This document shows, piece after piece, positions 11,646-26,456 of a DNA stretch of 26,795 nucleotides. A model generated the notes under the pieces. That model did not search any database and had not been told where the DNA came from. It saw only the letters and a program-made list of their open reading frames with translations. Source of the stretch: an uncultured Ruminococcus sp. GTDB taxonomy: Bacteria > Bacillota > Clostridia > Oscillospirales > Acutalibacteraceae. The position numbers were made by a program, and so were the translations under genes. The stretch spans positions 1 to 26,795 of the forward strand of contig CACZPV010000079.1 in the NCBI GenBank assembly GCA_902783065.1, in the 5' to 3' direction. Position 1 is the first letter of the stretch. Each line of letters opens with the position of its first letter.

Positions 11646-11688
11646 TTCCCACATATGGACATTCTGTTTGTGTGTGGGATGTTTTTTT
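11646..11688 (+). terminator. Intrinsic terminator after galE
   Basis: Stem TCCCACATATGGACA-ttc-TGTTTGTGTGTGGGA (with G-U pairs) followed by GTTTTTTT. Confidence 0.75.
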
Positions 11689-11796
11689 CTGAATCTATGA
11701 AAATCGGTATTTATGAACAGTAAAAATGTAGTCATAATGCGGAGTTTGATTTATTGTTTTGTATTTAAAAATCACAGGACAGACGTGCTTATTTTA

Positions 11797-11830
11797 CCCA
11801 TCACCTAACCCCTCACTAGTGGGAAGGGGA
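11797..11830. repeat. Single degenerate REP-like palindromic element
   Basis: CCCATCACCTAACCCCTCACTAGTGGGAAGGGGA, a GC-rich island in AT-rich intergenic DNA. It resembles CCCTCACCCTAACCCTCTCCC-N4-GGGAGAGGG type extragenic palindromes (recalled from memory). Only one copy in the window. Confidence 0.35.
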
Positions 11831-11950
11831 ATTGTTGCACAAGAGGATAAGATTAACACGTAGGGAATTTCCTCATCATAATTCATGGAGCCGATTTTAC
11901 GGATTCAGTACTCTGTTAAAATAAATGAGTAAACACTTTTTTACAATTTG

Positions 11951-11979
11951 TTGATAATTTGTTCAGTATGTTGTATAAT
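11951..11979 (+). promoter_or_regulatory. Sigma-A type promoter for block A
   Basis: TTGATA (11951-11956), 17-bp spacer, TATAAT (11974-11979). Confidence 0.7.
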
Positions 11980-12068: not shown

Positions 12069-13760
12069 TTGTGGGATGATGAGATGATAAACGAAAAAGC
12101 AGAAATATTATCTTTATTTCAACTGAATGATGAGGAAAAACAAAAACTCCGTAAAAAATTTTTTAATATTGATCCTGCTGTATGCGTATGCAGTGATTTT
12201 ACAGCTTTGCTTCATTCTGATGGAACGGTTGAAGTGAATGGAAAAACAGAATTTAATGAACAAAAGGATGAATGGTATAGTATAACAAAAATATGCGGAG
12301 GCAACGGTCATATAATCGGACTGCGTTCAGACGGAACGGTTGTTGCTTTTGGTGATAACAGCTGTGGTCAGTGTAATGTGAGTGACTGGAATAATATTAA
12401 GGATATTTTTGCAAATCACTATTATAGTGCTGCTGTAACAGATAAGGAGCAGCTTCTTCTGACCGGCAGAATGGATTTCGGAAGTTTTACGGAAGAAGAT
12501 TTGGAAGATAAGATTAACACTGCTTTCAGTGCCTGCGATAATAATAACGAGGTGCGTTTTTCCGAGGTTTTTGCTTTGGTAGAAGGATTGAAAAACTATG
12601 TTGGAGAGCATATCAAGAAACAAGATGATGCAGCGACAAAGGAAGAACTTAAAAAGGAGCTTCGTAAAGAATTGCTGCAGGAACTGAAGAAGAAAGAAAC
12701 TGATCTGGAACAGATTAAAAAGGATCTTAAAAAGGAAATTCTGATTGAACTGCGTACGGAAATCCGCTCGGTTATACCTGCATCTAACAAAGCAGCTTCC
12801 GGCAGAACTGTTAATGCAGAAAAACAATGTATGAAATGCATGAAAATGTATAAGGGCGGAAAATTTTGTCCTTATTGCGGTTTTGACAGTAACAGTCATC
12901 AGGATAGTCCATTGCTTCCGCTCGGACGTATGATAAAAAACGGAAAATATATAATTGGTGCTAAAATATCACAGAATCATGAAGGCGTAAAATATGCAGG
13001 CTACAGCACAGATTTGAAATCAAAAGTGGTGATTCATGAGTTTTTGCCTCTGGAATTATGTACAAGAGCGGTTCAGAGTGAGTATGTTACGGTCAAAAGC
13101 GGTTCGGATAAAAAATTTGCGGAACTGAGAGAAAAATTTCTGAAATACTATTATGCTATTTCTTCTGCTTCTAAAGGACATGCATATGCAAAAATACATG
13201 ATGTATTTTCTGATGGAGGTACATCCTATATTGTTGAAGAATTTGTTGACGGAGCAACTTTAAAGGATTATGTTTTACGCAAGGGCAGAGGATTGGATTG
13301 GAATACTGTCAGCAGACAGTTTCGCCCTATAGCAGCATTGCTGGCAGATGTACATGCAAAGGGTGAAGGTCATTATGCTGTATCACCTGATCATATTATT
13401 GTCTGCTCGAACGGAGAATTCAGGCTGGTAGGTTTTGCAGTGGAGGATGTCAGACACATTGGAGGTCTTATCAGTGCAGATCTTGTAAAGGGATGCAGTG
13501 CTATTGAACAGTATGATGCCAGAGCCAGACTGGATGAAACAACAGATATATATGGTTTTACAGCTTCTGTATGCTATGCCCTTACAGGAATACTGATAGA
13601 AGATGCCAATACCAGAAAAGAACGCAGTGCTATCTCTATTCCCGCAGCAGTTTTTAATACACTGCCTAAAACAGCGGTAGATCTGATTAAAGGCGGATTG
13701 TGGGTATCTCAGGCATCAAGAATAAGAACCTTTAAGTATATCCTGAATTATATAATCTGA
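12069..13760 (+). CDS. RCC1-like repeats + coiled coil + Zn ribbon + Ser/Thr pseudokinase domain protein
   Basis: About 2.5 RCC1/BLIP-II-like repeats (TALLHSDGTV, IIGLRSDGTVVAFGDNSCGQCNVSDW), ELKKELRKELLQEL segment, CMKC-x9-CPYC, and a Hanks-kinase fold with catalytic motifs replaced (SQNHEG, VVIH, HYAVSPDHI, LVGF) but TDIYG kept. Start is TTG 12069 or ATG 12084. Confidence 0.8.
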   Translation: MWDDEMINEKAEILSLFQLNDEEKQKLRKKFFNIDPAVCVCSDFTALLHSDGTVEVNGKTEFNEQKDEWYSITKICGGNGHIIGLRSDGTVVAFGDNSCGQCNVSDWNNIKDIFANHYYSAAVTDKEQLLLTGRMDFGSFTEEDLEDKINTAFSACDNNNEVRFSEVFALVEGLKNYVGEHIKKQDDAATKEELKKELRKELLQELKKKETDLEQIKKDLKKEILIELRTEIRSVIPASNKAASGRTVNAEKQCMKCMKMYKGGKFCPYCGFDSNSHQDSPLLPLGRMIKNGKYIIGAKISQNHEGVKYAGYSTDLKSKVVIHEFLPLELCTRAVQSEYVTVKSGSDKKFAELREKFLKYYYAISSASKGHAYAKIHDVFSDGGTSYIVEEFVDGATLKDYVLRKGRGLDWNTVSRQFRPIAALLADVHAKGEGHYAVSPDHIIVCSNGEFRLVGFAVEDVRHIGGLISADLVKGCSAIEQYDARARLDETTDIYGFTASVCYALTGILIEDANTRKERSAISIPAAVFNTLPKTAVDLIKGGLWVSQASRIRTFKYILNYII

Positions 13761-13959
13761 TTAACAAATCAATTATTTTATATACTGCCTGAATCTGTGA
13801 AATCCGGCAGGTCTTTTATAATCCATTATCCCTTGGAACTGCACTCCTTGGAATGACAATGGCAATCATTAATGACGTTTACTATAAAAATTGTCTTGGT
13901 ATGTGTATTATCATGCCAATGATGAGAAGTTTTACAAAGAACGGAAAGCAGGTGAACAA

Positions 13960-15657
13960 ATGCAGATGTTTGATGCCGCAAAGGGATTATTCCATTTATT
14001 TTTTTCAAATGATGATGATAAGTTTTATACTGACAGCTATGTAAGAACTGATTTGACGTTTCATTTATATGATCGTCTGACGGCAATGAATTATGAGTAT
14101 ATTTATGCTCTGTCGGGAGAAGGTTATTATAATTGCATATTTACATCGCTTGATAATATCAGTGCTGAGGCACTGGAAGACAGGAGCAGTCAGGGCAGAC
14201 TGATCGGATCGCTTTTCGGCAGCAAAAGACAAGCTGCCGAAAATTCTTCCCGTTTTCAGGAAAGACAAAGAAGCGGTAAGAAAACAATTCATCTGGATGA
14301 AATGAACTTCGAGGAAAATTTTAAAAATCTGATTGCTATGATGAAGCGTAAAAGCAAGGCAGCAGTGATTATTCCGATTGGTATTTTTAATTCACTTTGT
14401 CGTTTTCCCGAAATCATTGATGAACTGGAACGGATCAACGCTAAGAATTATCAGGATAATAACAGACATATTTTTGTTATTACTTCTTCTATGTATGCGG
14501 GGGAAAGTATTCGCTTTTTTAAGCCCAATGCTGAAACAGCATTGGAAGGCAATTTGTTTAATAACAGCGGTTTATTTCCCGAATTAGAAGCTTATTATCA
14601 TGATTATTATGATGCTTCCATGAATTTTTATATATACGATAATCTGAAACGACTGATGGGGGATAAGATTATTTTTTATAATTCCCTGAGTTTTGAACAT
14701 ATCCGAAGAATGGTAACAAGATATGCTATACATACCGGATATATGAAAGAAATGAGTATTAATAGTATTAATGCTCTTACAGGTGTGATTTACGCATATT
14801 ATCAATCCGCTGAATACCGAAAGGAGCATCATCTATCATTTCCTGAAAATCCTAAAAGATCACTTTCTGTGGTGGAAACGGCATTGAGAAATGACCGAAG
14901 TTTGCGGGAAGCTGCAGCTGAAGCAGCAAAAGATCTGCAATCACGCAGTGACATTTATAAATATATTTGCAGCGTATATCCGGATTGTGTGGACAGTGAA
15001 AATGGAATATATATGATAGGCGGCAGCAGCTACGGTGAGGACCTTGGAAAACTTATAGCTATCAAAAAAATATGTATGGGAAGATACGGAGAATGTCCTG
15101 CAGAATTAGACCGGGCAATAAATATGATGTCCAAACCGTGTATTGATACAGCTGTAAGTTTCAGTGCAGCAAATTTCAGAGAGAAAGTTATTGATATTGT
15201 TCATAAGAATATAGTAAATGAATTAACTGATTATGTGGATCTTGATTTGATTCAGTTTATGCTGAAAGCACTGAATTATTATTTTGATTATTTTCAGACA
15301 TCCTCTGTGTTGAAGGGGGATGCAGTAACAGCAAAGGATCTGAGCTTTGATTTTTATAAAAATATTATGCACCTTGCGGAAAGATTGTCAAATGCCCGTA
15401 AATCAAAACAGGAATTAAATGATAAACTGCTTTTGATGGAAGAACAAAATGATATGCAGGGAATAGAAAGCACCAGAGGTTATCTTGAACAGACAGAAGC
15501 AATGATACAAAATCTGGAACGAACCATAGAAAATGCAGAAAATATACTGTCTTCTCCGTTATCGGAAGCAAATGCAAGATCTGTGATCAGCGGCATGAAA
15601 TATGAAACTCAGAATCTGAAAAAGATAGATAACCCGTCAAACAGAATTTATAATTAA
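13960..15657 (+). CDS. Hypothetical protein (alpha/beta N-terminal domain, possibly a degenerate AAA+-like fold; C-terminal coiled coil)
   Basis: Long ORF with typical codon use. ATG 13960 follows AGGTGA (ORF-track start 13891). No Walker A and no TM helix. Confidence 0.7.
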   Translation: MQMFDAAKGLFHLFFSNDDDKFYTDSYVRTDLTFHLYDRLTAMNYEYIYALSGEGYYNCIFTSLDNISAEALEDRSSQGRLIGSLFGSKRQAAENSSRFQERQRSGKKTIHLDEMNFEENFKNLIAMMKRKSKAAVIIPIGIFNSLCRFPEIIDELERINAKNYQDNNRHIFVITSSMYAGESIRFFKPNAETALEGNLFNNSGLFPELEAYYHDYYDASMNFYIYDNLKRLMGDKIIFYNSLSFEHIRRMVTRYAIHTGYMKEMSINSINALTGVIYAYYQSAEYRKEHHLSFPENPKRSLSVVETALRNDRSLREAAAEAAKDLQSRSDIYKYICSVYPDCVDSENGIYMIGGSSYGEDLGKLIAIKKICMGRYGECPAELDRAINMMSKPCIDTAVSFSAANFREKVIDIVHKNIVNELTDYVDLDLIQFMLKALNYYFDYFQTSSVLKGDAVTAKDLSFDFYKNIMHLAERLSNARKSKQELNDKLLLMEEQNDMQGIESTRGYLEQTEAMIQNLERTIENAENILSSPLSEANARSVISGMKYETQNLKKIDNPSNRIYN

Positions 15658-15731: not shown

Positions 15732-17390
15732 ATGGTAAATTTAGGAATAGACTTCGGCAGTACCTACACGCTGATCTCTCATTACCGGAACGACAGAAAT
15801 ACACCTGAGGCAATCAGCCTTGATAATATCAGTCCATATATTCCTTCTGTCGTTTCCTATAATAAACGAAGAAATGAATACAAGATTGGCAAGGCTGCTA
15901 AGAATCTTACAGGAAATAAAAATATCATTATATACAAGGCTTTTAAGATGCTTTTGAATGAACAGATGAATGAAGAAAACCTACGGGAAAGATATTATGA
16001 CGAAGTAAATACGCCTGAAAAAATAGCTTCTCTGTTTCTTGAAAAGGTACTGAAAAGTGCGCTGTCAAAAATCGGTGAGGACAGGATCGGTAAACTTGTG
16101 GTTGGTGTTCCGGAAGTATGGGGACAAAGCTTCAATACCTTTGACGGACGTGCTGTACTGCATCAGATATGCAGTTCGTTTGATTTTGTTGAAGAAGCAG
16201 TTGTTGTCAGTGAACCTGCCTGTGCAAGTGCTTTTTTTGCGTATAATTATAAACTGATCCGTAAGGAAAATTTTGACGGAAAAGTACTGTTAATCGATTA
16301 CGGCGGAGGTACGCTGGATATTACACTTACAAAGGTATCTTCCAATGGTGATACTATGGAGGTTAAAGTTGAAAAGCGTGATGGTGCCGGAGAAAATACC
16401 GACAGGGAAATAGGCAACGCAGGTATTAAATATATGGAAAAGGTTACTGAGAGGGCAATACTGGACAGTGAAGCTTTTTCTGATCTGGAAACAGTTGAAT
16501 ATGACGGCGATTTTATGAAGGCTGTTGATGAACTTGAAGAAGTACTTATGAGTGATGCGGAAACTGTCGAGGATACTTTCAGAGAACTGGAATATACACC
16601 GGATGCGCTGGCGGATGAAGAATTGATTGAGCTTTTTTATAAAGGCGAAAGTGTAATTGTTACATACCGCCATCTAAACGATATTTATAATGAGTTTATT
16701 TATGGTGTGTTGAAAGAAAAGCTGGAAAATGTAACCGCAGATACCAATACGTATGAGGATAACTTTAAGATAGGAATTGTGGGAGGATTCGGAAATTTCT
16801 ATCTTGTAAAAAAGCAGATAAACGATATGTTTGAAATCAGTTCCAAAGATGAACGTACAGAGGGTATTATAGTTAACAGTGAGGATAGGGAAAGAGCAAT
16901 TTCTCTTGGTGCTTCACTGCTGGCGGATGAATTAATTACAATCAGAAAGACGGCTAATTTTTCGATCGGTATTTATGCTTTTCGTTCGCACAATGTTGTT
17001 GCCAAACACTATGCAATCAAATACAGACAGGATCTGGAGTATGACAAGATATATTACACTCTTGATGCAAAGGGAAACGATGTGCCGTATTTTACACCAT
17101 CAGGCAGGTTGGATAAATTTCTGGTGAATTTCAGCGATAACGAGGAACTTGCTTTTGGTGCAAATCCGAGAGCAGAATTAGCAGAAAAACTGAAAAATGT
17201 TGTGAATAATCAGTATATGATTGCAGCAGTCGGATTTTCGGTGGATGCTACTGATTCGATAACCATTCATGTGTCTGATTATGACTGGGAAACAGGACAA
17301 AGAAGCGAACATCCGGTAAAAAGTATTAAACTTTCTACCATCAAGACGATGTTTGATGTAGTAGCACTCAATTCAAGAGGTGACAGCTGA
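15732..17390 (+). CDS. Hsp70-family (actin-like ATPase) protein, non-canonical; not the housekeeping DnaK
   Basis: LGIDFGSTYT (phosphate 1), AFKMLL (DnaK K70 equivalent), VSEPACA (E171 equivalent), IDYGGGTLD (phosphate 2), VGGFGNF (adenosine), ISLGASLLA (connect 2). Short divergent C-terminus; SD GGAG at 15721. Confidence 0.88.
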   Translation: MVNLGIDFGSTYTLISHYRNDRNTPEAISLDNISPYIPSVVSYNKRRNEYKIGKAAKNLTGNKNIIIYKAFKMLLNEQMNEENLRERYYDEVNTPEKIASLFLEKVLKSALSKIGEDRIGKLVVGVPEVWGQSFNTFDGRAVLHQICSSFDFVEEAVVVSEPACASAFFAYNYKLIRKENFDGKVLLIDYGGGTLDITLTKVSSNGDTMEVKVEKRDGAGENTDREIGNAGIKYMEKVTERAILDSEAFSDLETVEYDGDFMKAVDELEEVLMSDAETVEDTFRELEYTPDALADEELIELFYKGESVIVTYRHLNDIYNEFIYGVLKEKLENVTADTNTYEDNFKIGIVGGFGNFYLVKKQINDMFEISSKDERTEGIIVNSEDRERAISLGASLLADELITIRKTANFSIGIYAFRSHNVVAKHYAIKYRQDLEYDKIYYTLDAKGNDVPYFTPSGRLDKFLVNFSDNEELAFGANPRAELAEKLKNVVNNQYMIAAVGFSVDATDSITIHVSDYDWETGQRSEHPVKSIKLSTIKTMFDVVALNSRGDS

Positions 17391-19423
17391 TGGATTTTCA
17401 AAGAACGAACAGAACACTTCGATCGCTCGAAAAAAAGAATACGCTTACCTTAGAAGATACACTTGGCGTAATCAACGATGTTTTTGCTGATGTACAGGGT
17501 ATTGCCGGATGTTCTCCTGATAAGTTGGAACTGGGAGAACTCAGGGCAGCACTGACAGGTTTGTCTGCTGTGGGACGTGTTTTGCTGCAAATCAATAAAA
17601 CAAAGGCAGATGAAATCGGAACTGCGGCAGACAGAAAAAAGCGGTTGGATAAGATTTATGGAGAGATTGAAAATGTTTCCCGCGAGATTGACGAGGGAAG
17701 CGATGTGATTGAAAAGCTGTCATCAGAACAAAGAGAGTTGGAAAACAGGAAACTGATATTGGAAGAAAGCAACAGGGAAGCTGCATCGCTGGAAGAAAAA
17801 TGCCGCCAGTTGAAAGAAGAAACCGATAAGATCAGTACAGCTGATATGGATGAACTTAACGAAAAAATATCCGGTCAGCAAAAACAGCTGAATGAAGCGA
17901 AAGAAAGATTCAATGACACTTATAATGAATATATACGGAGACAGGATATATTTCAAAGACTTGAAAATGATATCAGTACAAAAAAATCAGAAGCTGATAC
18001 ACTTGCACAGCAGATAAGTAATGCAGAAGAAAAGATTGCCGGATATGAAAAACAGTGCAGAGAATCAGAAGAAAAACTCAGTGAACTTTCTGAAAATGAA
18101 AGCGAAAATAAGGCAAGGGCTGAGCGGCTTGAGCAGGAATATACAGAAGCTTTGTCACAGAAGGAAGAAATTATGTATTCTGTCTTACCTTCCTTGCAGG
18201 AAAAACTGGAAAATATGAACCGTCAGCTTGCAGAAACTAAAAAGCAGTCGGAAGAACTTTCTGATGTGCTGAAGAAAAAAGAAAATGAACTGAATTTGCA
18301 GACAGATGAATTGGAAGAAAAAGCTATGAAAATTCGTAATTTTTCTTCCGAATTTGAAGCGGAAATCGAAAAGAAAAAAACTGAATGTGAAATGTTAGAG
18401 TCGGAAAATAAAAAACTGCAGTCGGATAAAGAAAAGATGGACAGTGATATACAGAAGATAAAGCAACAGCAGGAGAAACTTTGTGCAGAAATTCGTTCAC
18501 TTAAAGCAGAACTGAAAGCAAATGAAGATCTTGCTGAATCACACAGAGATGAAATTGCAAGATACAGGGATATAACAATTCCGGCAGCTGTTATTGCACT
18601 CAAAAAACGTGAAGATGCCTTGGATGAATATGCTGCCAGAAGCGGTGAACTTAAAATGCAGACTGCACAAAAAGAGGATGAACTAAATACACTGAAAAAT
18701 AAGATAGAAAGCCAGAATAGTGAACTGGAAGTTTTTACTAAACAATATGATACTCTTAATTCTGAAATCAATATGAACAGTCAGCGCCTGGAAGAAATAC
18801 AGGAACAGATTGGCAGTCTTGATAATGAGCGTCAGAAAATGATGGCAGAGATCAGCAGCAAAGAGGAACAACTTGGCATGTCTGATATTGATTCTCTCAA
18901 AAATAAGCTTGACGAAGTGTGTAAAGCACTGGATGAAGCAAATGCAGCAAAGATAAATCTGACAGAGGAAATCAATCAAAAAAATGCTGAAATAGCAGAA
19001 ATTACAGAAAAATGTGGTAATATGCAAAATGAAATTCGGGAACTTGCGGCTGATGCTAATAATGAAACCGAAAAACTGACAGAACTTGAGGAAAACCGTA
19101 AACAAATTACAGAGGAAAGGCAGCGTGTAAGAAAGCAGCATGAAGAATTGACAGAGATTCTCCGAAGTCTTAATTCTCCTGAAAGTGAAGCAAATCTGAG
19201 AATTTGCGAAGCTGAAATCGATGTAATGCAGGATGCAGTAGATAAGCTTTTTCCTGATGTACCATTGAGTACACTTACGCTGTTTGAGCGCAGAGATGAA
19301 ACAGAAAAAAAGAATCGGTATTTTAAAGAGGAAATTGTCAGAATAAGGCAGCTTCTTGAAAATTATCAATCACAGTACAAGATACTGATTAATGCACTCG
19401 AAAGGAGCAGCGGAGCACTATGA
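17390..19423 (+). CDS. Long coiled-coil protein (no ATPase head, no TM helix)
   Basis: Heptad-rich E/K/Q/L sequence over roughly aa 80-610; start overlaps the Hsp70 stop (TGATG). Confidence 0.8.
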   Translation: MDFQRTNRTLRSLEKKNTLTLEDTLGVINDVFADVQGIAGCSPDKLELGELRAALTGLSAVGRVLLQINKTKADEIGTAADRKKRLDKIYGEIENVSREIDEGSDVIEKLSSEQRELENRKLILEESNREAASLEEKCRQLKEETDKISTADMDELNEKISGQQKQLNEAKERFNDTYNEYIRRQDIFQRLENDISTKKSEADTLAQQISNAEEKIAGYEKQCRESEEKLSELSENESENKARAERLEQEYTEALSQKEEIMYSVLPSLQEKLENMNRQLAETKKQSEELSDVLKKKENELNLQTDELEEKAMKIRNFSSEFEAEIEKKKTECEMLESENKKLQSDKEKMDSDIQKIKQQQEKLCAEIRSLKAELKANEDLAESHRDEIARYRDITIPAAVIALKKREDALDEYAARSGELKMQTAQKEDELNTLKNKIESQNSELEVFTKQYDTLNSEINMNSQRLEEIQEQIGSLDNERQKMMAEISSKEEQLGMSDIDSLKNKLDEVCKALDEANAAKINLTEEINQKNAEIAEITEKCGNMQNEIRELAADANNETEKLTELEENRKQITEERQRVRKQHEELTEILRSLNSPESEANLRICEAEIDVMQDAVDKLFPDVPLSTLTLFERRDETEKKNRYFKEEIVRIRQLLENYQSQYKILINALERSSGAL

Positions 19424-19908
19424 TATGCAGATTTTGTAAAAGTGAAATGGAAGACGGAGAAATCCGATGCGGTTTTTGCGGTTTTACCCATATTAACTTT
19501 ACCGAAGAAGACAGTATGGGTGCAATGGATAGAATGCTGGAAAGCTATAAAAATAAAAAACTCGGTGGAATTAAAATAGAGCTTATCAGCTACCATTATA
19601 CTGTAGAGAATGGAAAAATTACGGAAAATGGAGAAAACATTATTCTGCTTGCCGATGCAGCAGAGCTTTCTGAGGATAAAATCAAGTGGAATGATGCGGG
19701 TTTTTACGGACCGGACAGCGAGAAACAGATATTTCTTACTATAAGAACAGGACAGGAAGAAAAAATAAATCACAGTCTGGAAATTAAGATTCCTGTCAGC
19801 GAAGAACTGAAAATCGGGGTAGTAATGGTTCCTGGACTGAAAGCAAAAATTGCAGCCGGCAATCCGGATGATTATGTCCTTTCCGATGAATTTTCGGTTT
19901 TAGACTAA
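19420..19908 (+). CDS. N-terminal Zn-ribbon protein with a beta-rich C-terminal domain
   Basis: CRFC-x10-CGFC; ATGA overlap with the upstream stop codon; SD GGAG just upstream. Confidence 0.78.
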   Translation: MICRFCKSEMEDGEIRCGFCGFTHINFTEEDSMGAMDRMLESYKNKKLGGIKIELISYHYTVENGKITENGENIILLADAAELSEDKIKWNDAGFYGPDSEKQIFLTIRTGQEEKINHSLEIKIPVSEELKIGVVMVPGLKAKIAAGNPDDYVLSDEFSVLD

Positions 19909-20091
19909 AACATATTTTTAGTTATTTGCAGTGACTGATTCAACATTTGACTTGAATTACTGAAAAGTCTGAATCACGGATATTAAGCATGAATATCATA
20001 AACAGAGCGATGCATAGAAGCTTACCTCAATGCCGTGTAAGGCAATGACTTAAAACCTGAATAAAACTCCTGATAAATAGTATTAATCCTA

Positions 20092-20119
20092 TTGAATTTT
20101 TTGATAAATTTTGTATAAT
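20092..20119 (+). promoter_or_regulatory. Sigma-A type promoter for block B (ESCRT-like operon)
   Basis: TTGAAT (20092-20097), 16-bp spacer, TATAAT (20114-20119); GGAGG SD ahead of ATG 20181. Confidence 0.6.
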
Positions 20120-20180
20120 AGAAGTAGCGGCGCTTTGTACAGCGATCCGGAAGTTAACAGTTTAAACGGAGGGTAAGTAA

Positions 20181-21374
20181 ATGGCGTTTTTATTTGGAAA
20201 AAAGAAAAAAGAAAACGAAGAACAGGCTTCTCAGATGCCTGTTGTAAGGGAAGATCCTAAAAAACAATTGGATATAACAAGACAGAATATGGTAAAAATG
20301 CTTTCAGCATTGGATACGATCAGTATAAATAAAATAAGGGCAAGTGTTTCAGAAGAAATTTTGTCGAATGCTGAATTATCGGAGTTTGACAGGGATCTGA
20401 AAACAGTTAAGGCAGTAATCGGAAAACAGACATCTTCACAGCTGATGCTGGCTGAAAGTGACGCAATTGATCAGGAACTGCTGTTTTTTGCGGAACATAT
20501 CGAAGATGAAATGTGTCAGGGACATTTCCTTGTTTCAGAAACCTATATGAAGGCAATCAAATTTGGAATTTCAAAAGGCCATGAGGCAATAAAGGAATCT
20601 GATATAGAAAATAAAGATGATATTCTGAATCAGCGTCTGGAAATTATTAAACATTATAAACTGATCGCAGAATTGAACAGGAAGATTGCCGCTTATCAGG
20701 ATAGTATGGTAAAGCTTAATGAAAAACTGGCAAAATTACAGTCGGATTACTCAGAAGCTAAAAGTATTGCGAAAGAAGAAAGTATCAGGCGCAAGGATAT
20801 GTATGATAAAATTATTCGTATGAGTCCTGCAGAGGTTGCTACGGCTACACCGGAAATACAGAATTTTGCGGCAATATTTTCAACTGTTAACGAACTGAAA
20901 AGCCAGATAAATGGTGTCAAAACCAGTATTTCCGGAATGAATTCCAACGTTCAGGAAATTAAGAGGGCTATCGGAAATACAGAAAATGCACTGCTTTCAA
21001 TCAATAGTATTACTACTGAAAAAGAACGCGAAGAAATAGAGAGGGTTAACAGACAATATATAGAAAATATGAAAAGTCTTCAGGATCAGGTATTTGAATT
21101 TGAAGATTTGTTTTCTGAACTGGATGCGTCCATTGACGCAATTAATTCAGACCCTCGCATCATCAGGAAAATGCTTAAGGATATGACAAGCTACAGAAAC
21201 ATTGTTCATCAGGATGAGATTGATCAGAAGGCCGAAGAAGAAGGTATGAAGGCTTATGAGGAATATCTCAGAAAACAACAGGAACAGCTTGATGACGATA
21301 TCAGGGGTATGGAGGAAGATCTCGATAACGATGGTATAAATAACGAACCCGAAAAGCATAAGATCAGCAACTGA
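20181..21374 (+). CDS. Helical coiled-coil protein, candidate ESCRT-III/Snf7-PspA superfamily member with an extra N-terminal helical domain
   Basis: N-terminus MAFLFGKKKK; long helical hairpin about aa 148-275 broken at MSPAEVATATPE; further helices and an acidic tail; first gene of the Snf7-like/Vps4-like operon. The CDS is secure, the family call is tentative. Confidence 0.5.
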   Translation: MAFLFGKKKKENEEQASQMPVVREDPKKQLDITRQNMVKMLSALDTISINKIRASVSEEILSNAELSEFDRDLKTVKAVIGKQTSSQLMLAESDAIDQELLFFAEHIEDEMCQGHFLVSETYMKAIKFGISKGHEAIKESDIENKDDILNQRLEIIKHYKLIAELNRKIAAYQDSMVKLNEKLAKLQSDYSEAKSIAKEESIRRKDMYDKIIRMSPAEVATATPEIQNFAAIFSTVNELKSQINGVKTSISGMNSNVQEIKRAIGNTENALLSINSITTEKEREEIERVNRQYIENMKSLQDQVFEFEDLFSELDASIDAINSDPRIIRKMLKDMTSYRNIVHQDEIDQKAEEEGMKAYEEYLRKQQEQLDDDIRGMEEDLDNDGINNEPEKHKISN

Positions 21375-21390
21375 CAAGGAGGTAACAGTC

Positions 21391-22203
21391 ATGGCATTTG
21401 GTATTTTTAAAAGTAAGGCTGAAAGAGAACAGGAAAAGCTTGATAAGGAAATTGCTAAAACAGAAAGATATCTGAGTGATGACAAGAAAATGAGTGATAT
21501 CAATAAAAAACGTAAAGAACTGGATAAGAAAAAGGCAAGACGTGACGATAGTAATTTCAGGGATAAAGTTTTTGAAACTAATGTTAAATTGAATAAGCTG
21601 GAAGAAAAGTTTGTTATGAAAATCGTGACGGAATCGAATGCTGTAAAGTATGAACGTGAAAGAAATCAGAGTACCAAAAAGTCCGAAAAAAGATTGAAAA
21701 ATGCGTATCTTTCACTTGTTATGGTTAAACATGCAAAGAAAAGATTGATTGAAATAGAAAATGAAAGAGATTGGAATCTTGCAATGAGAGATATGAGCGG
21801 AGCAATAAAAACAATGAATGCGATTTCTGTTGGTTCACAGAATGTACAAAAGATGCTGTTCCGTGCAAGAGTACAGAAGATGGGTTGGATGGAAGATAAT
21901 GAATCAAGCGGTTGGTTCAACGAACAGACAGAGGAAAAAGTTTCTAATGAAGAAGTTCAGAAGGTGATGAATAGCGATCCTGTTGATCTGATGGTGGCAG
22001 ATGATATCTATGATACACTTCTGGATGATCCTACTACTTCCATGATCAATGATTATGCTGAAAGAAGTATTGGTGTTGATGCTGATTTTGATGAAATGTC
22101 AGATATGTCGAAAAAGACAGAGCAGACCATGGACACAGAAACGGATATGGCTATTTCTGATGAGGAATTTGATGATTACCTCAGAGATTGGGGAAAAGTA
22201 TAA
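21391..22203 (+). CDS. Snf7/ESCRT-III-like protein (CHMP1/2/3-like) with a C-terminal MIM1-like helix
   Basis: Basic N-half and acidic C-half; MAFGIFKSK N-terminus; AMRDMSGAIKTMN (aa 131-143) matches the CHMP2-type AMKGVTKAMGTMN pattern; C-terminal DEEFDDYLRDW has MIM1 hydrophobic spacing; directly upstream of a MIT-AAA ATPase. SD AAGGAGG. Confidence 0.68.
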   Translation: MAFGIFKSKAEREQEKLDKEIAKTERYLSDDKKMSDINKKRKELDKKKARRDDSNFRDKVFETNVKLNKLEEKFVMKIVTESNAVKYERERNQSTKKSEKRLKNAYLSLVMVKHAKKRLIEIENERDWNLAMRDMSGAIKTMNAISVGSQNVQKMLFRARVQKMGWMEDNESSGWFNEQTEEKVSNEEVQKVMNSDPVDLMVADDIYDTLLDDPTTSMINDYAERSIGVDADFDEMSDMSKKTEQTMDTETDMAISDEEFDDYLRDWGKV

Positions 22204-22215
22204 ATGAATATTTCA

Positions 22216-22242
22216 TTTCGCCCCGCCGTTGACGGGGCGAAA
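22216..22242 (+). promoter_or_regulatory. Intra-operon GC-rich stem-loop without a U-tract (candidate mRNA stability/processing element)
   Basis: Perfect 10-bp stem TTTCGCCCCG/CGGGGCGAAA with a 7-nt loop; no poly-T follows on either strand. Confidence 0.55.
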
Positions 22243-22276
22243 ATAAAACCTGATAAAACGAAAGAAGTGATTGAGT

Positions 22277-23548
22277 ATGGAACGTAATTATGCAGTGGCT
22301 GTACAGAAAAGAGAAAATCTGTACAGAGCTTATATTAATAAAGCACAGCTTGTACTTCAAAGCAGCGGTGGTAAGCATACGGCAGAGGAATGTCAGTATC
22401 TTCAGAGAGCAGCTGAACTGCAAAGCGAAATGGCAGATATGACAATCGGAGAAGAAAGAAATCATCATTTGAGGGAAAAGGAAACAATCAGCGCTAAAAT
22501 CCTTTCGGTTCTTAAAGAAATTGATCCTCAAAAGGCATTGGAATTTGAACAGGGTAAAACTGGTGAAAAGAAAACATCACAGACAACAGGTAAAGGCGGC
22601 GGTGACAGCGATAAGGAAAAGCTGGATGCTATGGCAAAATCATGGTATAAGGAAGCGCCGAATCATTCTTTTGCACAGGTTTCCGGTATGGCGGAACTGA
22701 AAGCAAAATTGGCTGACTGTGTTACCAATTCAAACTGTGAAGCGTTGCTTGATTTCCTGAAAATACCAAGATTAAACACCTACTTTTTCGTAGGGCCTCC
22801 CGGATGCGGTAAAACCTATATTATTGAAGCATTTGCTAATGAACTTGTTAATATGAAGGATAAGGATTATAAATTTCTTTCACTGGTTGGTTCGGATATT
22901 ATCAGCCGTTATGTTGGTGATGCGGAAAAAATTGTTACAAGAATGTTTGAGGAAGCAGAAAACTGTGCTCCCTGTATTGTGTTTATCGATGAAATTGACG
23001 GTGTATGCCGTAACCGTTCACAGAAATCTATGCCGGAATACGCAGCCTCTATTACAACATCCTTCCTGACAGGTTATAACAGAATAAAAAATTCCGGAAA
23101 GTCTATTATCTTTATCGGTGCGACTAATTATCCGCAGCGTGTAGACTCTGCTATGCTGGACAGAGCTGAGGTAATCCGTGTACCGCTTCCTGACGAAGAA
23201 GCAAGATGCAATGCATTTCGTATGCAGTTTGAAGGAATTGTTTCTTTGGCAGAAGGTATTACTTATGATGATATGGCATCTGTAACTGACGGTTATAATT
23301 ATCGTGATATCGAGCGTGTTACTTCCATTATGAAAAAATCTGTTTTTGAACAGGTAATGCAGCAGGCAGGTAATGAACAGGCTGCTATTGATATGCTGAA
23401 AAATGGCAGCTTTAAATTAAAGAAAAGTGATTTTGAAACTGCTATGGCTGATTTTAAACCGTCTTCAAAGAAGGATATATTGGATGCAATCGATAAGTGG
23501 GAGCGTAATCTTAACAACGACAGTTATCTGATTGACGACGAAGAATAA
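22277..23548 (+). CDS. Vps4/CdvC-like AAA+ ATPase with an N-terminal MIT-like three-helix domain
   Basis: PNHSFAQVSGMAELKAKL, Walker A GPPGCGKT (22793-22816), pore loop ISRYVGDAEK, Walker B IVFIDE (DE at 22988-22993), GATNYP..VDSAMLDR..VPLPD, TDGYNYRDI, and C-terminal LKKSDFETAMADFKPSSKKDILDAIDKW helix as in Vps4/katanin/spastin. ORF track starts at TTG 22271; ATG 22277 is likely. Confidence 0.82.
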   Translation: MERNYAVAVQKRENLYRAYINKAQLVLQSSGGKHTAEECQYLQRAAELQSEMADMTIGEERNHHLREKETISAKILSVLKEIDPQKALEFEQGKTGEKKTSQTTGKGGGDSDKEKLDAMAKSWYKEAPNHSFAQVSGMAELKAKLADCVTNSNCEALLDFLKIPRLNTYFFVGPPGCGKTYIIEAFANELVNMKDKDYKFLSLVGSDIISRYVGDAEKIVTRMFEEAENCAPCIVFIDEIDGVCRNRSQKSMPEYAASITTSFLTGYNRIKNSGKSIIFIGATNYPQRVDSAMLDRAEVIRVPLPDEEARCNAFRMQFEGIVSLAEGITYDDMASVTDGYNYRDIERVTSIMKKSVFEQVMQQAGNEQAAIDMLKNGSFKLKKSDFETAMADFKPSSKKDILDAIDKWERNLNNDSYLIDDEE

Positions 23549-23561
23549 GCGGAGGCTATTA

Positions 23562-24566
23562 ATGTCAGCAGAAGTTTTGGAAAAATATAAACAAAAAATT
23601 CCTAAGGACGACAACGAACATTACATCAGCCGTAAACGATACGAAACAATGCTTGTGGGCTGCCTGCCTTTTGAGGATCAGGAACTTTATTTTAAAACGT
23701 TGTCTTCAAAAAGTGCCATGATTCTGACAGGAAAAAAAGGCTGCGGCAAAAGAACTTTGGAAGAAGCGTTTCTGGAAGAATACGGAGAAATGTTTCCGGC
23801 TTTGCTGCGTTTTCCGTTTTGTCAGCTTGCCGAAGAAGGAGAAGAAACACTGGAAGCGGAACTGAAAGATTTTTTCTCGGCTTTGGCGAACAAAGAGGCA
23901 GAAGATGACGAAGCAGCATACATGGTTTCTCTTGGTGAAATCAATGCTGTAGATACTATGCCTAAGGTATGCAGCATGCTTGCACATGGATTGGAAAATA
24001 CCATTAAAAACGGAAAAAACATATGTATTATAACGGCTGTTTATGATGGAGAAGTCAGGAATCTGCCGAAAAGCATCCGGAAATCGGTGCTGGTATGCAG
24101 GGTTGATCCGCCTTCGCTGGAAGAACGTCTGCAGTTTTTTGAATCCTCGCTCAATTCTCTGCTTGGCTTTGTTAATGATGTGACGGGTATTGATTTCATG
24201 GCAGAGTATACAGAAGGTTTTACTTTTGATGACCTTAATGATCTCATACGTAATCTTCATGCTTTCTTAAAAGCAAAGTTTGTTACTGATGTTGCTGAAA
24301 CAAGCGGCGGAGAGATCGGGGAAGTGGAAATGGCGGATATTGGAATTGATAAGGTTAATCTGGAAAAGGACGATTTTATTTATCTTGCCGATAATTATAA
24401 AGTAGAAAAGCCGCAGCCTGCCGGAGCATTTGATATGAGTGCTCTTACGGAGGTTCTTTCTAATCTCACGCTTAATCTGGCTTCAGGTGCAGAAGAAAAG
24501 AAACCGGAGGAGAATTCACCATTTGCCCTTCTGGATGACGATGATGATCCGGACAACATTTTTTGA
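23562..24566 (+). CDS. Degenerate (probably inactive) AAA+ ATPase paralogue
   Basis: Walker A GKKGCGKR (Thr/Ser replaced by Arg), Walker B YMVSLGE (Asp lost), SRH remnant LPKSIRKSVLVCRVDPPSLEERLQFF, lid MAEYTEGFTFDDL; acidic tail. ATG 23562 follows GGAGG (23551-23555). Confidence 0.78.
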   Translation: MSAEVLEKYKQKIPKDDNEHYISRKRYETMLVGCLPFEDQELYFKTLSSKSAMILTGKKGCGKRTLEEAFLEEYGEMFPALLRFPFCQLAEEGEETLEAELKDFFSALANKEAEDDEAAYMVSLGEINAVDTMPKVCSMLAHGLENTIKNGKNICIITAVYDGEVRNLPKSIRKSVLVCRVDPPSLEERLQFFESSLNSLLGFVNDVTGIDFMAEYTEGFTFDDLNDLIRNLHAFLKAKFVTDVAETSGGEIGEVEMADIGIDKVNLEKDDFIYLADNYKVEKPQPAGAFDMSALTEVLSNLTLNLASGAEEKKPEENSPFALLDDDDDPDNIF

Positions 24567-24613
24567 TTATGGAAATGCTTTTTGATTCATAACTTTCAAT
24601 AGCAGATATATTT

Positions 24614-24671
24614 GGGCTGCCGCCATTACTCCCAGTTCCAGATTTGGGATGGGAGTAATCTTTCTGTGCCC
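24614..24671 (+). terminator. Hairpin/terminator-like structure at the end of block B
   Basis: Perfect 10-bp stem ATTACTCCCA (24625-24634)/TGGGAGTAAT (24650-24659), inner TTCCA/TGGGA pairing, followed by CTTTCTGT (weak U-tract). Confidence 0.5.
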
Positions 24672-24758
24672 GATGTTTGTATGATGATCTATTGAAGAAT
24701 GGAATCAGGTTGTGTAAAATAATAGTAAAGAAATATAGCGGATAACAGTGGTGATGAT

Positions 24759-26456
24759 ATGGAAGAATTATATAAATGTAAGAAATGCGGTCATGAATTT
24801 GATATTGAGGAAGTTTATTGCCCTATGTGCAAGGAAGAAGCCATAGGGGAGGTAAAGTTTACTTCTCCTCTCAAACAAAAGGAGGAAGGATCCAAAAGAC
24901 TTCATATAATCCTGATTATCTGTGCTGGTATATTATTGACGGCAGTTATCCTGGGCGTGTTTCTGATGAAACCGTATGCGGAGGGAGAAAACACGGATCA
25001 CAGCAGCGAGAACATCAAGGTACAAACGGAAGTTCCAAATTTTATCGGTAATACTGAACAGCGTGCAAATGAAAAAGCCAGTATGGCAGGTTTACGACTT
25101 GATATTGAATATGAAGCAAATGATAAATATGACGAAGGTCAGGTGTTCTATCAGGAAGTTGAAGAAATGACAAAGGTTGACAGGGATTCTCATATTAAGG
25201 TTAAAATTGCAACGAGTAATCCGGTTAATAATGTTGTACATGACGATAAAGTTATTATGCCGTCATTGACAGGACTTACCATGGAGCAGGCAGGAAAAGA
25301 ACTGGATGTCAGAAAATTGAAATATGAGGTCGTATATCTCGGCAGTGATGAAGTTGATGAAGGTTATGTAATATCACAAACTATTGAACCAGGTAGCATG
25401 ATTGATCCTGATACAGATATCTATCTGTCTGTTTGTAAAAAGACAGAAAGAGTTCTTGAAAAAATTACTATGGAAAAGCTTCCTGAAAGAATTACTTATT
25501 TTGTGGATGAAAATCGGATTGATTTTAACGGACTGCAGATCAGAGCTTTCTATACGGATGGTTCACAGGATCTTGTTACTGCTGATTCTTTGGGAGAAGT
25601 ATCTGAAACAGAGATTATAAATAATTATTCTGTGATGGGTTCTCCCGATCTGATTACGGTAGACAATCTGAATCATATTGTTGGAACGCAGACGCTGACG
25701 GTTTATTACAGAAACAAAACGACAACATTTGATGTTAATATTGTTGAGGATACAAAGGAAGAAAATGTGACGCTTGCCTCTATAAAAATTACCAAGCCGG
25801 CATCGGTGACAGAATATTCTCTCATGCTGGAGCCGGATGAACCTGCTGTGGATAAATATTGTAATACCAATCTCAAGGGACTGGAGGTAACCGCTTATTT
25901 TAGTGACGGTACCGAAAGAATACTTTCACCCTATGTAATGCAAGATGCACAGAAAAATCATGGTATCGATTATACATGGCAGACAGATGCTGGCTGTTCG
26001 GTCAGCAACATAAATATATACCGTGAAGGTAAACAAACAGTAGAAATTAACTACTATGGGAAAAAAACATCTTATGAAATTGTTGTTCTTAAAAACAGCA
26101 GCAATATCTGTTTGTCGGATCAATTTCCTGGTGGAGTTGAGGTCAGTCTGGATTATGACGGAATACTTGAAGTCAGTGGAACCGGAATTATTACAGATGG
26201 CTTCTGGAACGGTTATATCAACTCTGTCAAAAAAATTGTGATCAACAAAGGTATTACAGGAATCGAGAATACAGCTTTCAACAGATGCTGCAAAGCCGTA
26301 AGTATCACAATACCGGAGAGTGTGGAAAATATACAGGAATATTCTTTTAAGAATTGGACTTTCTCACAAAAAATATTTGTTCTGGGGAAGGATACGGTAC
26401 CTGAGAAATGGATCAATTTCTACAATACCTCTGCAAACATCATCTGGAACCCATAA
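24759..26456 (+). CDS. Single-pass membrane protein: Zn ribbon - TM - 2x PASTA - 2x bacterial Ig-like - BspA-type LRR remnant
   Basis: CKKC-x10-CPMC; TM aa 48-70; PASTA repeats (VPNFIGNTEQRA..., MPSLTGLTMEQA...DEVDEGYVISQTIEPG); Ig-like repeats (ITMEKLPERITYFVDE.IDFNGLQIRAFYTDGS; IKITKPASVTEY...LKGLEVTAYFSDGT); LRR_5-like VKKIVINKGITGIENTAF...ITIPESVENIQEYSF. Confidence 0.82.
   Translation: MEELYKCKKCGHEFDIEEVYCPMCKEEAIGEVKFTSPLKQKEEGSKRLHIILIICAGILLTAVILGVFLMKPYAEGENTDHSSENIKVQTEVPNFIGNTEQRANEKASMAGLRLDIEYEANDKYDEGQVFYQEVEEMTKVDRDSHIKVKIATSNPVNNVVHDDKVIMPSLTGLTMEQAGKELDVRKLKYEVVYLGSDEVDEGYVISQTIEPGSMIDPDTDIYLSVCKKTERVLEKITMEKLPERITYFVDENRIDFNGLQIRAFYTDGSQDLVTADSLGEVSETEIINNYSVMGSPDLITVDNLNHIVGTQTLTVYYRNKTTTFDVNIVEDTKEENVTLASIKITKPASVTEYSLMLEPDEPAVDKYCNTNLKGLEVTAYFSDGTERILSPYVMQDAQKNHGIDYTWQTDAGCSVSNINIYREGKQTVEINYYGKKTSYEIVVLKNSSNICLSDQFPGGVEVSLDYDGILEVSGTGIITDGFWNGYINSVKKIVINKGITGIENTAFNRCCKAVSITIPESVENIQEYSFKNWTFSQKIFVLGKDTVPEKWINFYNTSANIIWNP

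Follow-up and report, generated by a model that had tools for sequence, protein, structure and literature searches.

A conserved gene cluster of gut and rumen Clostridia appears to pair Snf7-like proteins with an ATPase of the Vps4/CdvC clade

We analysed a 26,795-nucleotide stretch of DNA (hereafter, the window) from an uncultured Ruminococcus sp., in which the ORF list confirms the four co-directional ORFs described at 20181-24566 in a first-pass annotation; these and all other features given here lie on the + strand. P1 (20181..21374) encodes a helical protein of 397 aa with an ESCRT-III-type N-terminus, tentatively ESCRT-III-like at residues ~160-330, and P2 (21391..22203) a putative Snf7-like (ESCRT-III-like) subunit of 270 aa that starts with a membrane-type motif and continues through a predicted helical hairpin core and an acidic linker to an amphipathic helix at the C-terminus. 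They are followed by an active single-module classic AAA ATPase (22277..23548; 423 aa from ATG, with an alternative start, TTG 22271, used by the ORF lister), assigned by Pfam (AAA, 4e-31), motifs, hhalign and a tree, and by its catalytically dead AAA paralogue, or pseudo-ATPase (23562..24566; 334 aa from ATG, with TTG 23532 also open as a start), assigned by motif loss in the AAA alignment. Upstream lie an RCC1-repeat and degenerate kinase-like protein (12069..13760; 563 aa; Pfam RCC1_2 2e-9, weak Pkinase), protein X (13891..15657; 588 aa), an Hsp70-like ATPase of the actin/Hsp70 fold (15732..17390; 552 aa; Pfam HSP70 2.6e-12, nucleotide-binding part), whose stop overlaps the start of a long coiled-coil protein (17390..19423; 677 aa; SMC/Rad50-arm-type coiled-coil matches only), and a Zn-ribbon protein (19420..19908; 162 aa; CxxC...CxxC near the N-terminus of the translation).

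The first-pass description of the four genes as an operon started by a promoter of its own and closed by a hairpin was not confirmed in that form; the conserved unit comprises eight genes and contigs from RNA libraries span both proposed boundaries. A promoter-like site (TTGAAT-16-TATAAT, 10/12; 20092..20119) does lie in the 272-bp gap 5' of P1; however, RNA-library contigs cover this gap, and promoter-like sites occur in the window at chance frequency (44 found vs. 47 expected). The hairpin 3' of the last gene (24625..24659; RNA fold of 24555-24760) has a weak U-tract, was not called by the terminator scan and a 3.4-kb contig from an RNA library runs across it. The clearest pairing of a terminator with a promoter (11647-11979; terminator-like 11647-11679, best promoter-like 11951-11979) precedes the RCC1/kinase-like gene.

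Gene-neighbourhood comparison places the four genes as the second half of an eight-gene core, in the order X, Hsp70-like, coiled-coil, Zn-ribbon, P1, P2, AAA and dead AAA, which is kept across 21/21 loci (X, which opens the core, is in place in 19/21) and persists down to 42% ATPase identity; the expected co-conservation of P1, P2, AAA and dead AAA was thus borne out in every locus examined. Protein X matched no Pfam, NCBIfam, PADLOC or PHROG family. The coiled-coil protein varies from 268 to 1258 aa among relatives at a conserved position, Zn-ribbon orthologues of 160-187 aa are present in most of the 21 loci, paralogous subunits number 2-3 per system, and 8/21 loci encode a protein with 4-5 TM segments within the cluster. 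The system was found in 16/61 genomes of the host genus (~30% of its high-quality genomes) and in 0/298 other high-quality genomes of the order, with none in sister genera, and it recurs in Lachnospiraceae, Ruminococcus and Oscillospiraceae. It is an accessory trait, and its restriction to ~30% of high-quality genomes of the genus fits one that is dispensable.

The proposal that P2 is ESCRT-III/Snf7-like gained support from several partly independent lines (profiles, an AF2 model with structure searches, Atlas features, motifs and HMM enrichment). By hhalign, the P2 family (64 sequences) matched 55 Asgard Snf7 sequences with 82% probability (E 1e-5); the 108 columns keep one register over the N-terminal motif and alpha1-alpha3, and the score was 42.2 vs. 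15.8-17.7 for reversed profiles and a maximum of 19.1 over 120 shuffles; in the same set-up, PspA vs. Snf7 gave 90-95%, AAA vs. Snf7 0.3% and controls ≤1.3%. Probabilities were 77% and 34% against two Snf7 subfamilies, and 45% against Snf7 with a P2 alignment of 83 sequences. A Snf7 HMM selected 11/83 P2 proteins, vs. 3/1583 background ORFs. These comparisons suggest moderate profile-level homology of P2 to bona fide Snf7. PspA/IM30 (PF04012) identity was rejected (hhalign ≤1% vs. 97.5% for the positive control). No member of the P2 family (0/64) matched PF03357 at E ≤10 in a Pfam search, which is a weak negative because PF03357 also misses genuine CdvB (E 2e-4, below the cut-off).

The AF2 model of P2, built from the 64-sequence alignment, reached pLDDT 88.6 and pTM 0.78. 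In a shape search of 48,161 chains, ESCRT-III proteins made up 7 of the top 50 matches, all in one register; a second structural comparison placed them at ranks 2-5, the best Foldseek PDB match was closed CdvB, and PF03357 stood on the top three named clusters by Atlas features. Shape searches of AFDB Swiss-Prot, AFDB clusters and the ESM Atlas with this model returned no significant match; syntaxins and unnamed proteins came out on top there, with CHMP2b and Vps2 ('DOA4-independent degradation protein 4') low. The first-pass description of two charge-polarised helical proteins proved accurate family-wide, with hydrophobic-then-basic N-termini and acidic tails in both: the N-terminal motif, by a rule written post hoc with the data already seen, occurs in 73% of P2, 77% of P1 and 71% of true Snf7 sequences vs. 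8% of the background, and an acidic tail in 87% of P2 and 63% of P1 sequences vs. 9%. P2 thus carries a putative H0-type N-terminal motif and an acidic tail with a terminal amphipathic helix of apparent MIM type.

Both helical proteins had been proposed to be Snf7-like, and this stands for P2, whereas the case for P1 is weak. An enriched P1 profile aligned with Asgard Snf7 at a probability of just 24-32% (E 5-8e-4; P1 161-319 vs. Snf7 28-179), scoring 32 where the reversed profile scored 16 and the best of 40 block shuffles 19; the Snf7 HMM gave no P1 matches, the PspA profile reached 17.7% over 43 columns, and an Atlas search, for which the stored P1 model was poor, yielded no usable match. 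We therefore treat P1 as tentatively ESCRT-III-like. Sub-threshold Snf7 ORFs in Bacillota family f60 were considered as a bridge and rejected; no P1, P2 or AAA lies nearby, and one such ORF is beside an HtpX-type protease.

The reading of the third gene as a single-module AAA+ ATPase was upheld, as an alignment of 37 relatives shows one AAA cassette in which Walker A/B and pore loop 1 are intact, together with a C-terminal helix. Hhalign matched it to archaeal Vps4/CdvC at 100% (ATPase 114-412 vs. 93-383), and a tree placed it with Vps4/CdvC inside a clade of SH-aLRT 97, with CDC48 D1/D2, PAN and FtsH outside and a Bacteroidota AAA group as sister of the system ATPases. In AU tests, grouping the system with the Vps4 clade was not rejected (lnL +2.3, p 0.55), and forcing the ATPase with CDC48-D2 cost 19.5 lnL (p 0.066). 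The ATPase thus appears to belong to a supported clade containing Vps4/CdvC, nearer to these than to CDC48, PAN or FtsH, as had been suggested, in a tree whose sampling is biased and leaves out eukaryotic sequences. In sequence searches of NCBIfam and the PDB, CDC48/p97 had the top raw scores, but these totals sum two domains; per domain, Vps4B scored 121 bits vs. 97 for CDC48 D2. The fourth gene was confirmed as a pseudo-ATPase paralogue in ~20 loci: it has lost Walker B, pore loop, sensor-1 and Arg finger and keeps GxxGxGK, and its profile (A4) finds relatives at E 5e-6 to 4e-23.

The first-pass annotation also assigned an MIT domain to the ATPase, and this assignment failed at the level of sequence. 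The N-domain, first read as a three-helix bundle, is helical, spans ~90 residues (pLDDT 73 within a complex prediction) and is followed by a low-complexity linker; its profile matched 11 archaeal MIT domains with a probability of 0.3% and a score of 11.4, below the shuffle maximum of 18.8, Pfam MIT was absent from the ATPase and 120 relatives, and MIT clusters appeared among Atlas features at noise level only (0.76-0.77). A single complex prediction of ATPase 1-95 with P2 226-270 scored 0.02, which is evidence neither way. The Arg-finger motif, AMLDR(A/V)E with an invariant Asp-Arg, provides one Arg, and paired arginine fingers are absent; AAA ATPases of the meiotic clade carry RR at this position.

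The cluster has close counterparts in archaeal CdvB-CdvC (Thermoproteota) and ESCRT-IIIA/B with Vps4 (Asgard), in which 1-3 Snf7-type subunit genes likewise lie directly 5' of a single-module classic AAA, the subunits (~200-290 aa) combine a hydrophobic-basic N-terminus and a helical hairpin core, in P2 an apparent one, with an acidic tail that finishes in an amphipathic helix, and the ATPase homology spans the whole AAA module and C-terminal helix. It differs from them in an N-domain without MIT similarity, in one Arg finger rather than two, in the lack of CdvA, ESCRT-I and ESCRT-II genes, in the fixed addition of a dead AAA, Hsp70-like, coiled-coil, Zn-ribbon and X, and in its bacterial host and patchy accessory distribution. 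Bacterial PspA/Vipp1 (IM30) shares the ESCRT-III superfamily context, an N-terminal amphipathic membrane motif and a link to Hsp70, which controls VIPP1 oligomers through the VIPP1 C-terminal tail (PMC12798727); however, the P2 profile matches Snf7 and not PspA, the PspA partners PspF, PspB/C, LiaI/F and Toastrack are absent from this system, and PspA is not known to work with a Vps4-clade ATPase (PMC7619361). Vps4-like ATPases have also been transferred to some bacteria that lack snf7, reportedly with a TPR-6TM gene in its place (Ravi et al., 2024; PMC11237479); these are likewise bacterial single-module AAA proteins related to archaeal Vps4, and a large bacterial clade like them adjoins Vps4 in our tree, but our cluster does have Snf7-like genes, and its ATPase N-domain does not resemble a TPR. 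In CDC48/p97 D2 the likeness is in raw scores, whereas the tree sets our family apart from both CDC48 D1 and D2.

We think it fairly probable that an accessory system, spreading horizontally among Clostridia of gut and rumen, operates in the manner of ESCRT-III/Vps4 and that the four genes are its effector half. P2, and probably P1, would bind the cytoplasmic membrane via their short hydrophobic-basic N-termini and polymerise via a helical hairpin core of ESCRT-III type; the active AAA would extract subunits from the polymer through its pore loops, probably from the acidic C-terminal tails, and the dead AAA may act as a non-hydrolysing ring partner or adaptor, while assembly is most likely set off, positioned or regulated by X, the Hsp70-like ATPase, the coiled-coil protein and the Zn-ribbon, with Hsp70 control of VIPP1 oligomers as a precedent. 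What survives of the initial Snf7/Vps4-type proposal is P2, the ATPase clade and the co-conservation; the MIT domain, at the level of sequence, and the autonomous four-gene unit do not survive, and P1 remains weak. As to its role, an anti-phage or conflict-related membrane response seems the likeliest single candidate, although short of probable, with envelope-stress repair a serious but lesser candidate and others (vesicle release, sporulation-linked fission) the least likely of the three. It is possible, although we lean against it, that the system is a genuine bacterial ATP-driven scission machine of ESCRT-III/Vps4 type, either anciently related or imported from archaea and remodelled around an Hsp70-like nucleator and a pseudo-ATPase, and serving as a mobile accessory module that, for example, seals or sheds damaged or phage-attacked membrane.

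Vps4-type control of ESCRT-III is currently viewed as an archaeal and eukaryotic trait: a 2025 review describes bacteria as having no Vps4-like ATPase for their own ESCRT-III relatives (PMC7619361), and Makarova et al., 2024 report ESCRT components in archaea and not in bacteria (PMC10936438). The first-pass statement that characterised bacterial ESCRT-III relatives have no dedicated Vps4-type ATPase agrees with both, with the transferred ATPases of PMC11237479 as a caveat. A bacterial cluster that joins Snf7-like subunits and a Vps4-clade ATPase, as this one appears to do in a rumen/gut Clostridia genome, would change that view; it would offer a tractable bacterial model of ATP-driven ESCRT-III remodelling, and would leave the age of the ESCRT-III/AAA partnership and its route between domains to be explained. 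With the Hsp70-like gene and pseudo-ATPase as fixed members, the system suggests regulatory solutions unseen in archaea and eukaryotes. Being common among the Clostridia of gut and rumen, it may matter for envelope stress or phage resistance there.

The strongest competing account, which we nevertheless judge unlikely, is abortive infection or conflict: the Hsp70-like protein and AAA would serve as sensors or thresholding chaperones, P1 and P2 would be membrane-damaging effectors released on attack, and any ESCRT-III likeness would serve killing or dormancy, not repair. The patchy spread, carried by 16/61 genomes of the genus and by 0/298 elsewhere in the order yet recurring in other families, would suit such a system, as would its variable sensor-like accessories, namely the RCC1/kinase-like gene (~1/3 of loci: the window, L001, L002, L011, L064, L067 and L073), LRR, Sel1 and PP2C, and the insertion of a BrxL-type ATPase in 4 loci. 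Weak PADLOC matches of the ATPase to IetA and TRIP13 point the same way but reflect generic AAA similarity; classic effectors such as a nuclease, protease or NADase are missing from the cluster, and the idea of a defence island was rejected, as five loci examined are flanked by housekeeping and not by defence genes.

We consider it doubtful, and less probable again, that P1 and P2 are unrelated to ESCRT-III and are instead scaffolds of a general helical or coiled-coil kind (BAR-like or other), with the AAA pair as a general unfoldase that acts with the Hsp70-like protein on another substrate. In structural Z against P2, BAR domains do equal or surpass ESCRT-III (Mvp1 9.1, arfaptin 7.6), P1 and P2 found nothing meaningful in Pfam, NCBIfam, PADLOC or PHROGs and no match in PDB sequence and profile searches, and their kinship is undetectable by profile comparison (1-2%). 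Against this, the P2-Snf7 profile match is specific and its controls clean, with PspA and shuffled profiles both unmatched, the motifs at both termini recur family-wide and are those of true Snf7, closed CdvB leads the Foldseek PDB matches, and a Vps4-clade ATPase next door is the hallmark genomic context of ESCRT-III. That the system is no stress or conflict response but a lineage-specific cell-biology module, for example for division, vesicle formation or membrane fission tied to sporulation, is very unlikely given its carriage by a minority of the genus and by no sister genera, even though archaeal ESCRT-III/Vps4 drives division and vesicle release (PMC7619361), Pfam-level PspA was not found in the genomes of the genus searched, and the locus is present in bovine gut RNA libraries for which no stress is known.

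Four co-directional open reading frames occupy 20181-24566 on the forward strand, as the first-pass annotation had it: P1 (20181-21374; 397 aa, with a good Shine-Dalgarno sequence) and P2 (21391-22203; 270 aa), which encode two helical proteins, an AAA ATPase (22277-23548 from its ATG, the same as the 423-aa database form) and a second, degenerate AAA-like gene, the dead AAA (23562-24566). When gene order was compared across contigs encoding relatives of P2 and the ATPase, the recurring unit was longer: an unknown protein of ~600 aa (X), an Hsp70-like ATPase, a long coiled-coil protein, a ~165-aa Zn-ribbon protein, P1, P2, the AAA and the dead AAA. A further 13 loci of this system came from scanning species-representative genomes (uncultured Clostridia, Candidatus Scybalocola, Lachnospiraceae, Ruminococcus, Eubacteriales and Oscillospiraceae), and in the 21 loci that we annotated with profiles made from the window's proteins the core order was kept in 21/21, down to 42% ATPase identity. 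The four genes are thus co-conserved, though within a unit of eight rather than as the autonomous operon first described. Copy number varies (one or two P1-family and one or two P2-family genes), and at 8/21 loci the Zn-ribbon gene and P1 are separated by a gene for a 161-166-aa protein predicted to have 4-5 TM segments (L007, L010, L065, L066, L068, L069, L072 and probably L074); in the window's version of the cluster, no TM protein is predicted. Four loci carry an insertion between the active and the dead AAA, a gene for a BrxL-type (BREX-associated) ATPase (L008, 11058-12698; L011, 11681-13150; also L067 and L070).

The upstream gene is variable, with RCC1/pseudokinase, LRR, Sel1 or PP2C domains; in the window it encodes RCC1 repeats together with a protein-kinase region that is weak and probably degenerate (12069-13760, forward strand), and this RCC1-type gene is found at about a third of system loci, once downstream rather than upstream (L001). 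Downstream, 24759-26456 (forward strand) encodes a protein with a Zn-ribbon, one TM segment, two PASTA domains, Big_3 and a BspA-type LRR; with no kinase domain, it looks like the extracellular half of a kinase of the PrkC/Stk1 type, and in relatives it is not conserved alongside the system. The promoter and end hairpin ascribed to the four genes correspond, on the forward strand, to a promoter-like site upstream of P1 (20092-20119) and a hairpin with a weak U-tract 3' of the last gene (24625-24659); however, promoter-like sites in the window were not commoner than in shuffled sequence (44 found vs. 47 expected), and the hairpin was absent from the terminator-scan calls. Further upstream, at 11647-11679 and 11951-11979, is the clearest pairing of a terminator with a promoter. 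The cluster was present at at least 99% identity in bovine gut metatranscriptome libraries from two studies (29/30 bins covered in one run), libraries that may carry DNA. A 3.4-kb contig (21987-25351; one contig is not proof of a single transcript) runs through P2, the AAA and the dead AAA into the downstream gene, and others cover the 19908-20181 gap; these contigs show presence and, in crossing that gap and passing the dead AAA, give no support to a tight insulation of four genes. In one metatranscriptome contig of run X1, 39 other letters link 13887 directly to 20061, a junction that would leave out the genes from X to the Zn-ribbon; the contig's shorter side has only 20 letters, and another organism may be its source.

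P2 itself is probably ESCRT-III-like. Direct searches for known families, Pfam Snf7 included, found nothing for the window P2 or for any of the 64 family members gathered by exhaustive HMMER search. The Pfam Snf7 negative is of little weight because the model also scores genuine crenarchaeal CdvB below its gathering threshold (E 2e-4; L079, L098, L099, L101), as it does the S. acidocaldarius CdvB control, which it matches below cut-off, while an HMM derived from Asgard Snf7 detects crenarchaeal CdvB at 6e-10 to 3e-6. An ESM Atlas search on language-model features of P2 placed three Snf7-bearing clusters first (scores 0.88-0.89), at the level of a lead only. In the decisive profile-profile comparison, against 55 Pfam-confirmed Asgard Snf7 proteins reached through archaeal Cdv and Asgard ESCRT loci of the genome scan, the P2 family gave an hhalign probability of 82% (E 1e-5, score 42.2), the 108 aligned columns keeping register over the N-terminal motif and alpha1-alpha3; the accepted remote relationship of PspA to Snf7 gave 90-95%, the AAA as negative control 0.3%, reversed profiles 0.4-0.8% (score 15.8-17.7), and the maximum scores were 11.5 in 60 column shuffles and 19.1 in 60 block shuffles. 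The strength of this signal depends on the alignment (77% and 34% against two Snf7 subfamilies; 45% against Snf7 with an 83-sequence P2 alignment). In the reciprocal test, 11/83 P2-family proteins, whose members are mutually non-independent, exceeded 8 bits with the Snf7 HMM vs. 3/1583 background ORFs. To PspA, P2 has no profile similarity (at most 1%, vs. 97.5% for the positive control). ORFs of 234-251 aa from one family of Bacillota (coded f60) also score sub-threshold with Pfam Snf7 (E 7e-5 to 9e-3, model ~3-119; L013, L017, L028, L055-L059; one beside an HtpX-type protease); these are unrelated to the eight-gene system and may be another divergent bacterial ESCRT-III-like family.

The charge-polarised termini described for both helical proteins hold up across divergent families, which begin with a brief run of hydrophobic or aromatic residues and then lysines, and have a strongly acidic C-terminal 40 residues, often with an amphipathic helix at the end. 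By a simple rule, formulated after the data were seen, the N-terminal motif and the strongly acidic tail occur in 73% and 87% of the P2 family, 77% and 63% of the P1 family, 71% and 42% of Asgard Snf7, 56% and 50% of PspA, and 8% and 9% of 1055 background ORFs. These features match exactly those described for ESCRT-III, an N-terminal lipid-binding H0 and C-terminal Vps4-recruiting elements (PMC7619361). For P1 we make the ESCRT-III-like assignment only tentatively: residues ~161-319 of an enriched 35-sequence profile align to most of the Snf7 core with a score (32) above the reversed profile (16) and the maximum of 40 block shuffles (19), but the probability is 24-32% and the Snf7 HMM has zero matches in the P1 family. 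Sequence comparison detected no relationship between P1 and P2.

The AAA is a classic-clade ATPase with intact Walker A (GPPGCGKT), Walker B (DEID) and pore loop 1, a single Arg at the finger position (invariant Asp-Arg), a small subdomain without a long insertion and a conserved C-terminal helix. Its raw search scores are highest for CDC48, but each such total adds up two domains; taken domain by domain, Vps4B reaches 121 bits vs. 97 bits for CDC48 D2, and the family profile matches archaeal Vps4/CdvC at 100% probability (114-412 vs. 93-383). For the phylogeny, 112 AAA modules went into a maximum-likelihood tree (17 system, 11 Vps4/CdvC, PAN, CDC48 D1/D2, FtsH and, from the genome scan, 62 further single or double AAAs); its non-outgroup sequences were collected via a shared PPGCGKTY pattern, and the set had no eukaryotic meiotic-clade members. 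The system ATPases are monophyletic (SH-aLRT 100), on a long stem, and nest in a 97-supported clade with Vps4/CdvC and a large bacterial group, outside which CDC48 D1/D2, PAN and FtsH fall. The nearest neighbours of the system ATPases are ~590-aa Bacteroidota/Acidobacteria proteins (support 94) rather than Vps4. Constraining the system with Vps4 was unrejected and slightly better (lnL +2.3, p-AU 0.55), and constraining it with CDC48 D2 cost 19.5 lnL (p-AU 0.066). The ~590-aa genes have an ~850-aa Hsp70-like gene just upstream (L106, 4699-7230; L088, 4569-7142), with P1, P2 and any Snf7-like gene absent beside the pair, and the Hsp70-like/AAA partnership may be older than the eight-gene system.

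The MIT domain attributed to this ATPase did not survive comparison of sequence profiles. A profile of its N-domain (residues 1-92, 37 sequences) matched 11 archaeal Vps4/CdvC N-domains at 0.3% probability, with a score (11.4) below the shuffle maximum (18.8); Pfam MIT was absent from the window AAA and 120 relatives, and Atlas features of residues 1-100 reached MIT clusters at noise level only (0.76-0.77). Because the claim failed at the level of sequence profiles, we do not file the protein as a Vps4 family member; judged at that level, it is an AAA of the Vps4 clade whose N-domain is either different or beyond recognition, and may still fold as an MIT-like bundle. The dead AAA is a divergent paralogue (profile E from 5e-6 to 4e-23) and, as first proposed, degenerate: across about 20 loci it keeps GxxGxGK, with R, H or Q replacing the catalytic Ser/Thr, and has lost the Walker B acidic pair, pore-loop aromatic, sensor-1 Asn and Arg finger. 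In L011 and L067 it is ~550 aa, the product having a precomputed Pfam DUF421 match.

The MAG that contains the window measures 1.96 Mb and is 77% complete. The P2 family occurs in 16/61 genomes of the genus (8/27 high-quality ones) and in 0/298 high-quality genomes drawn from some 150 further genera within the order, yet the system recurs in other Clostridia families, among flanks that vary between loci and contain housekeeping genes; the pattern is that of an accessory, horizontally moving trait. No Pfam-level PspA_IM30 or Snf7 was found in the MAG or 12 same-genus genomes (G000-G012), several of which are 99-100% complete.

The reading that needs the fewest assumptions is a remodelling module of ESCRT-III/Vps4-like type, in which proposed membrane-binding, polymerising subunits would be recycled by a Vps4-clade unfoldase assisted by the pseudo-ATPase, and in which the coupled Hsp70-like/coiled-coil/Zn-ribbon/X set would trigger or place assembly. 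In VIPP1, Hsp70 controls an ESCRT-III-superfamily polymer via its C-terminal tail (PMC12798727). We lean towards a role in conflict or stress response because of the patchy distribution, variable sensor-like genes and BrxL-type insertions. According to a 2025 review, bacteria appear to have no Vps4-like ATPase (PMC7619361), and Makarova et al., 2024 detected ESCRT components among archaea but not among bacteria (PMC10936438); no published description of the eight-gene set was found in the literature searched, subscription journals being outside its coverage. Ravi et al., 2024 reported PspA paired with a double-AAA protein, and Vps4-like transfers to bacteria in which a TPR-6TM gene displaces snf7 (PMC11237479), whereas in the eight-gene system a probably Snf7-like P2 stands beside a Vps4-clade AAA. 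A large bacterial clade of single-module AAAs (430-460 aa) with TPR-like N-termini adjoins Vps4/CdvC in our tree (L085, L096, L102, L110, L116, L117, L119, L121, L130, L141 and others) and probably represents those transfers.
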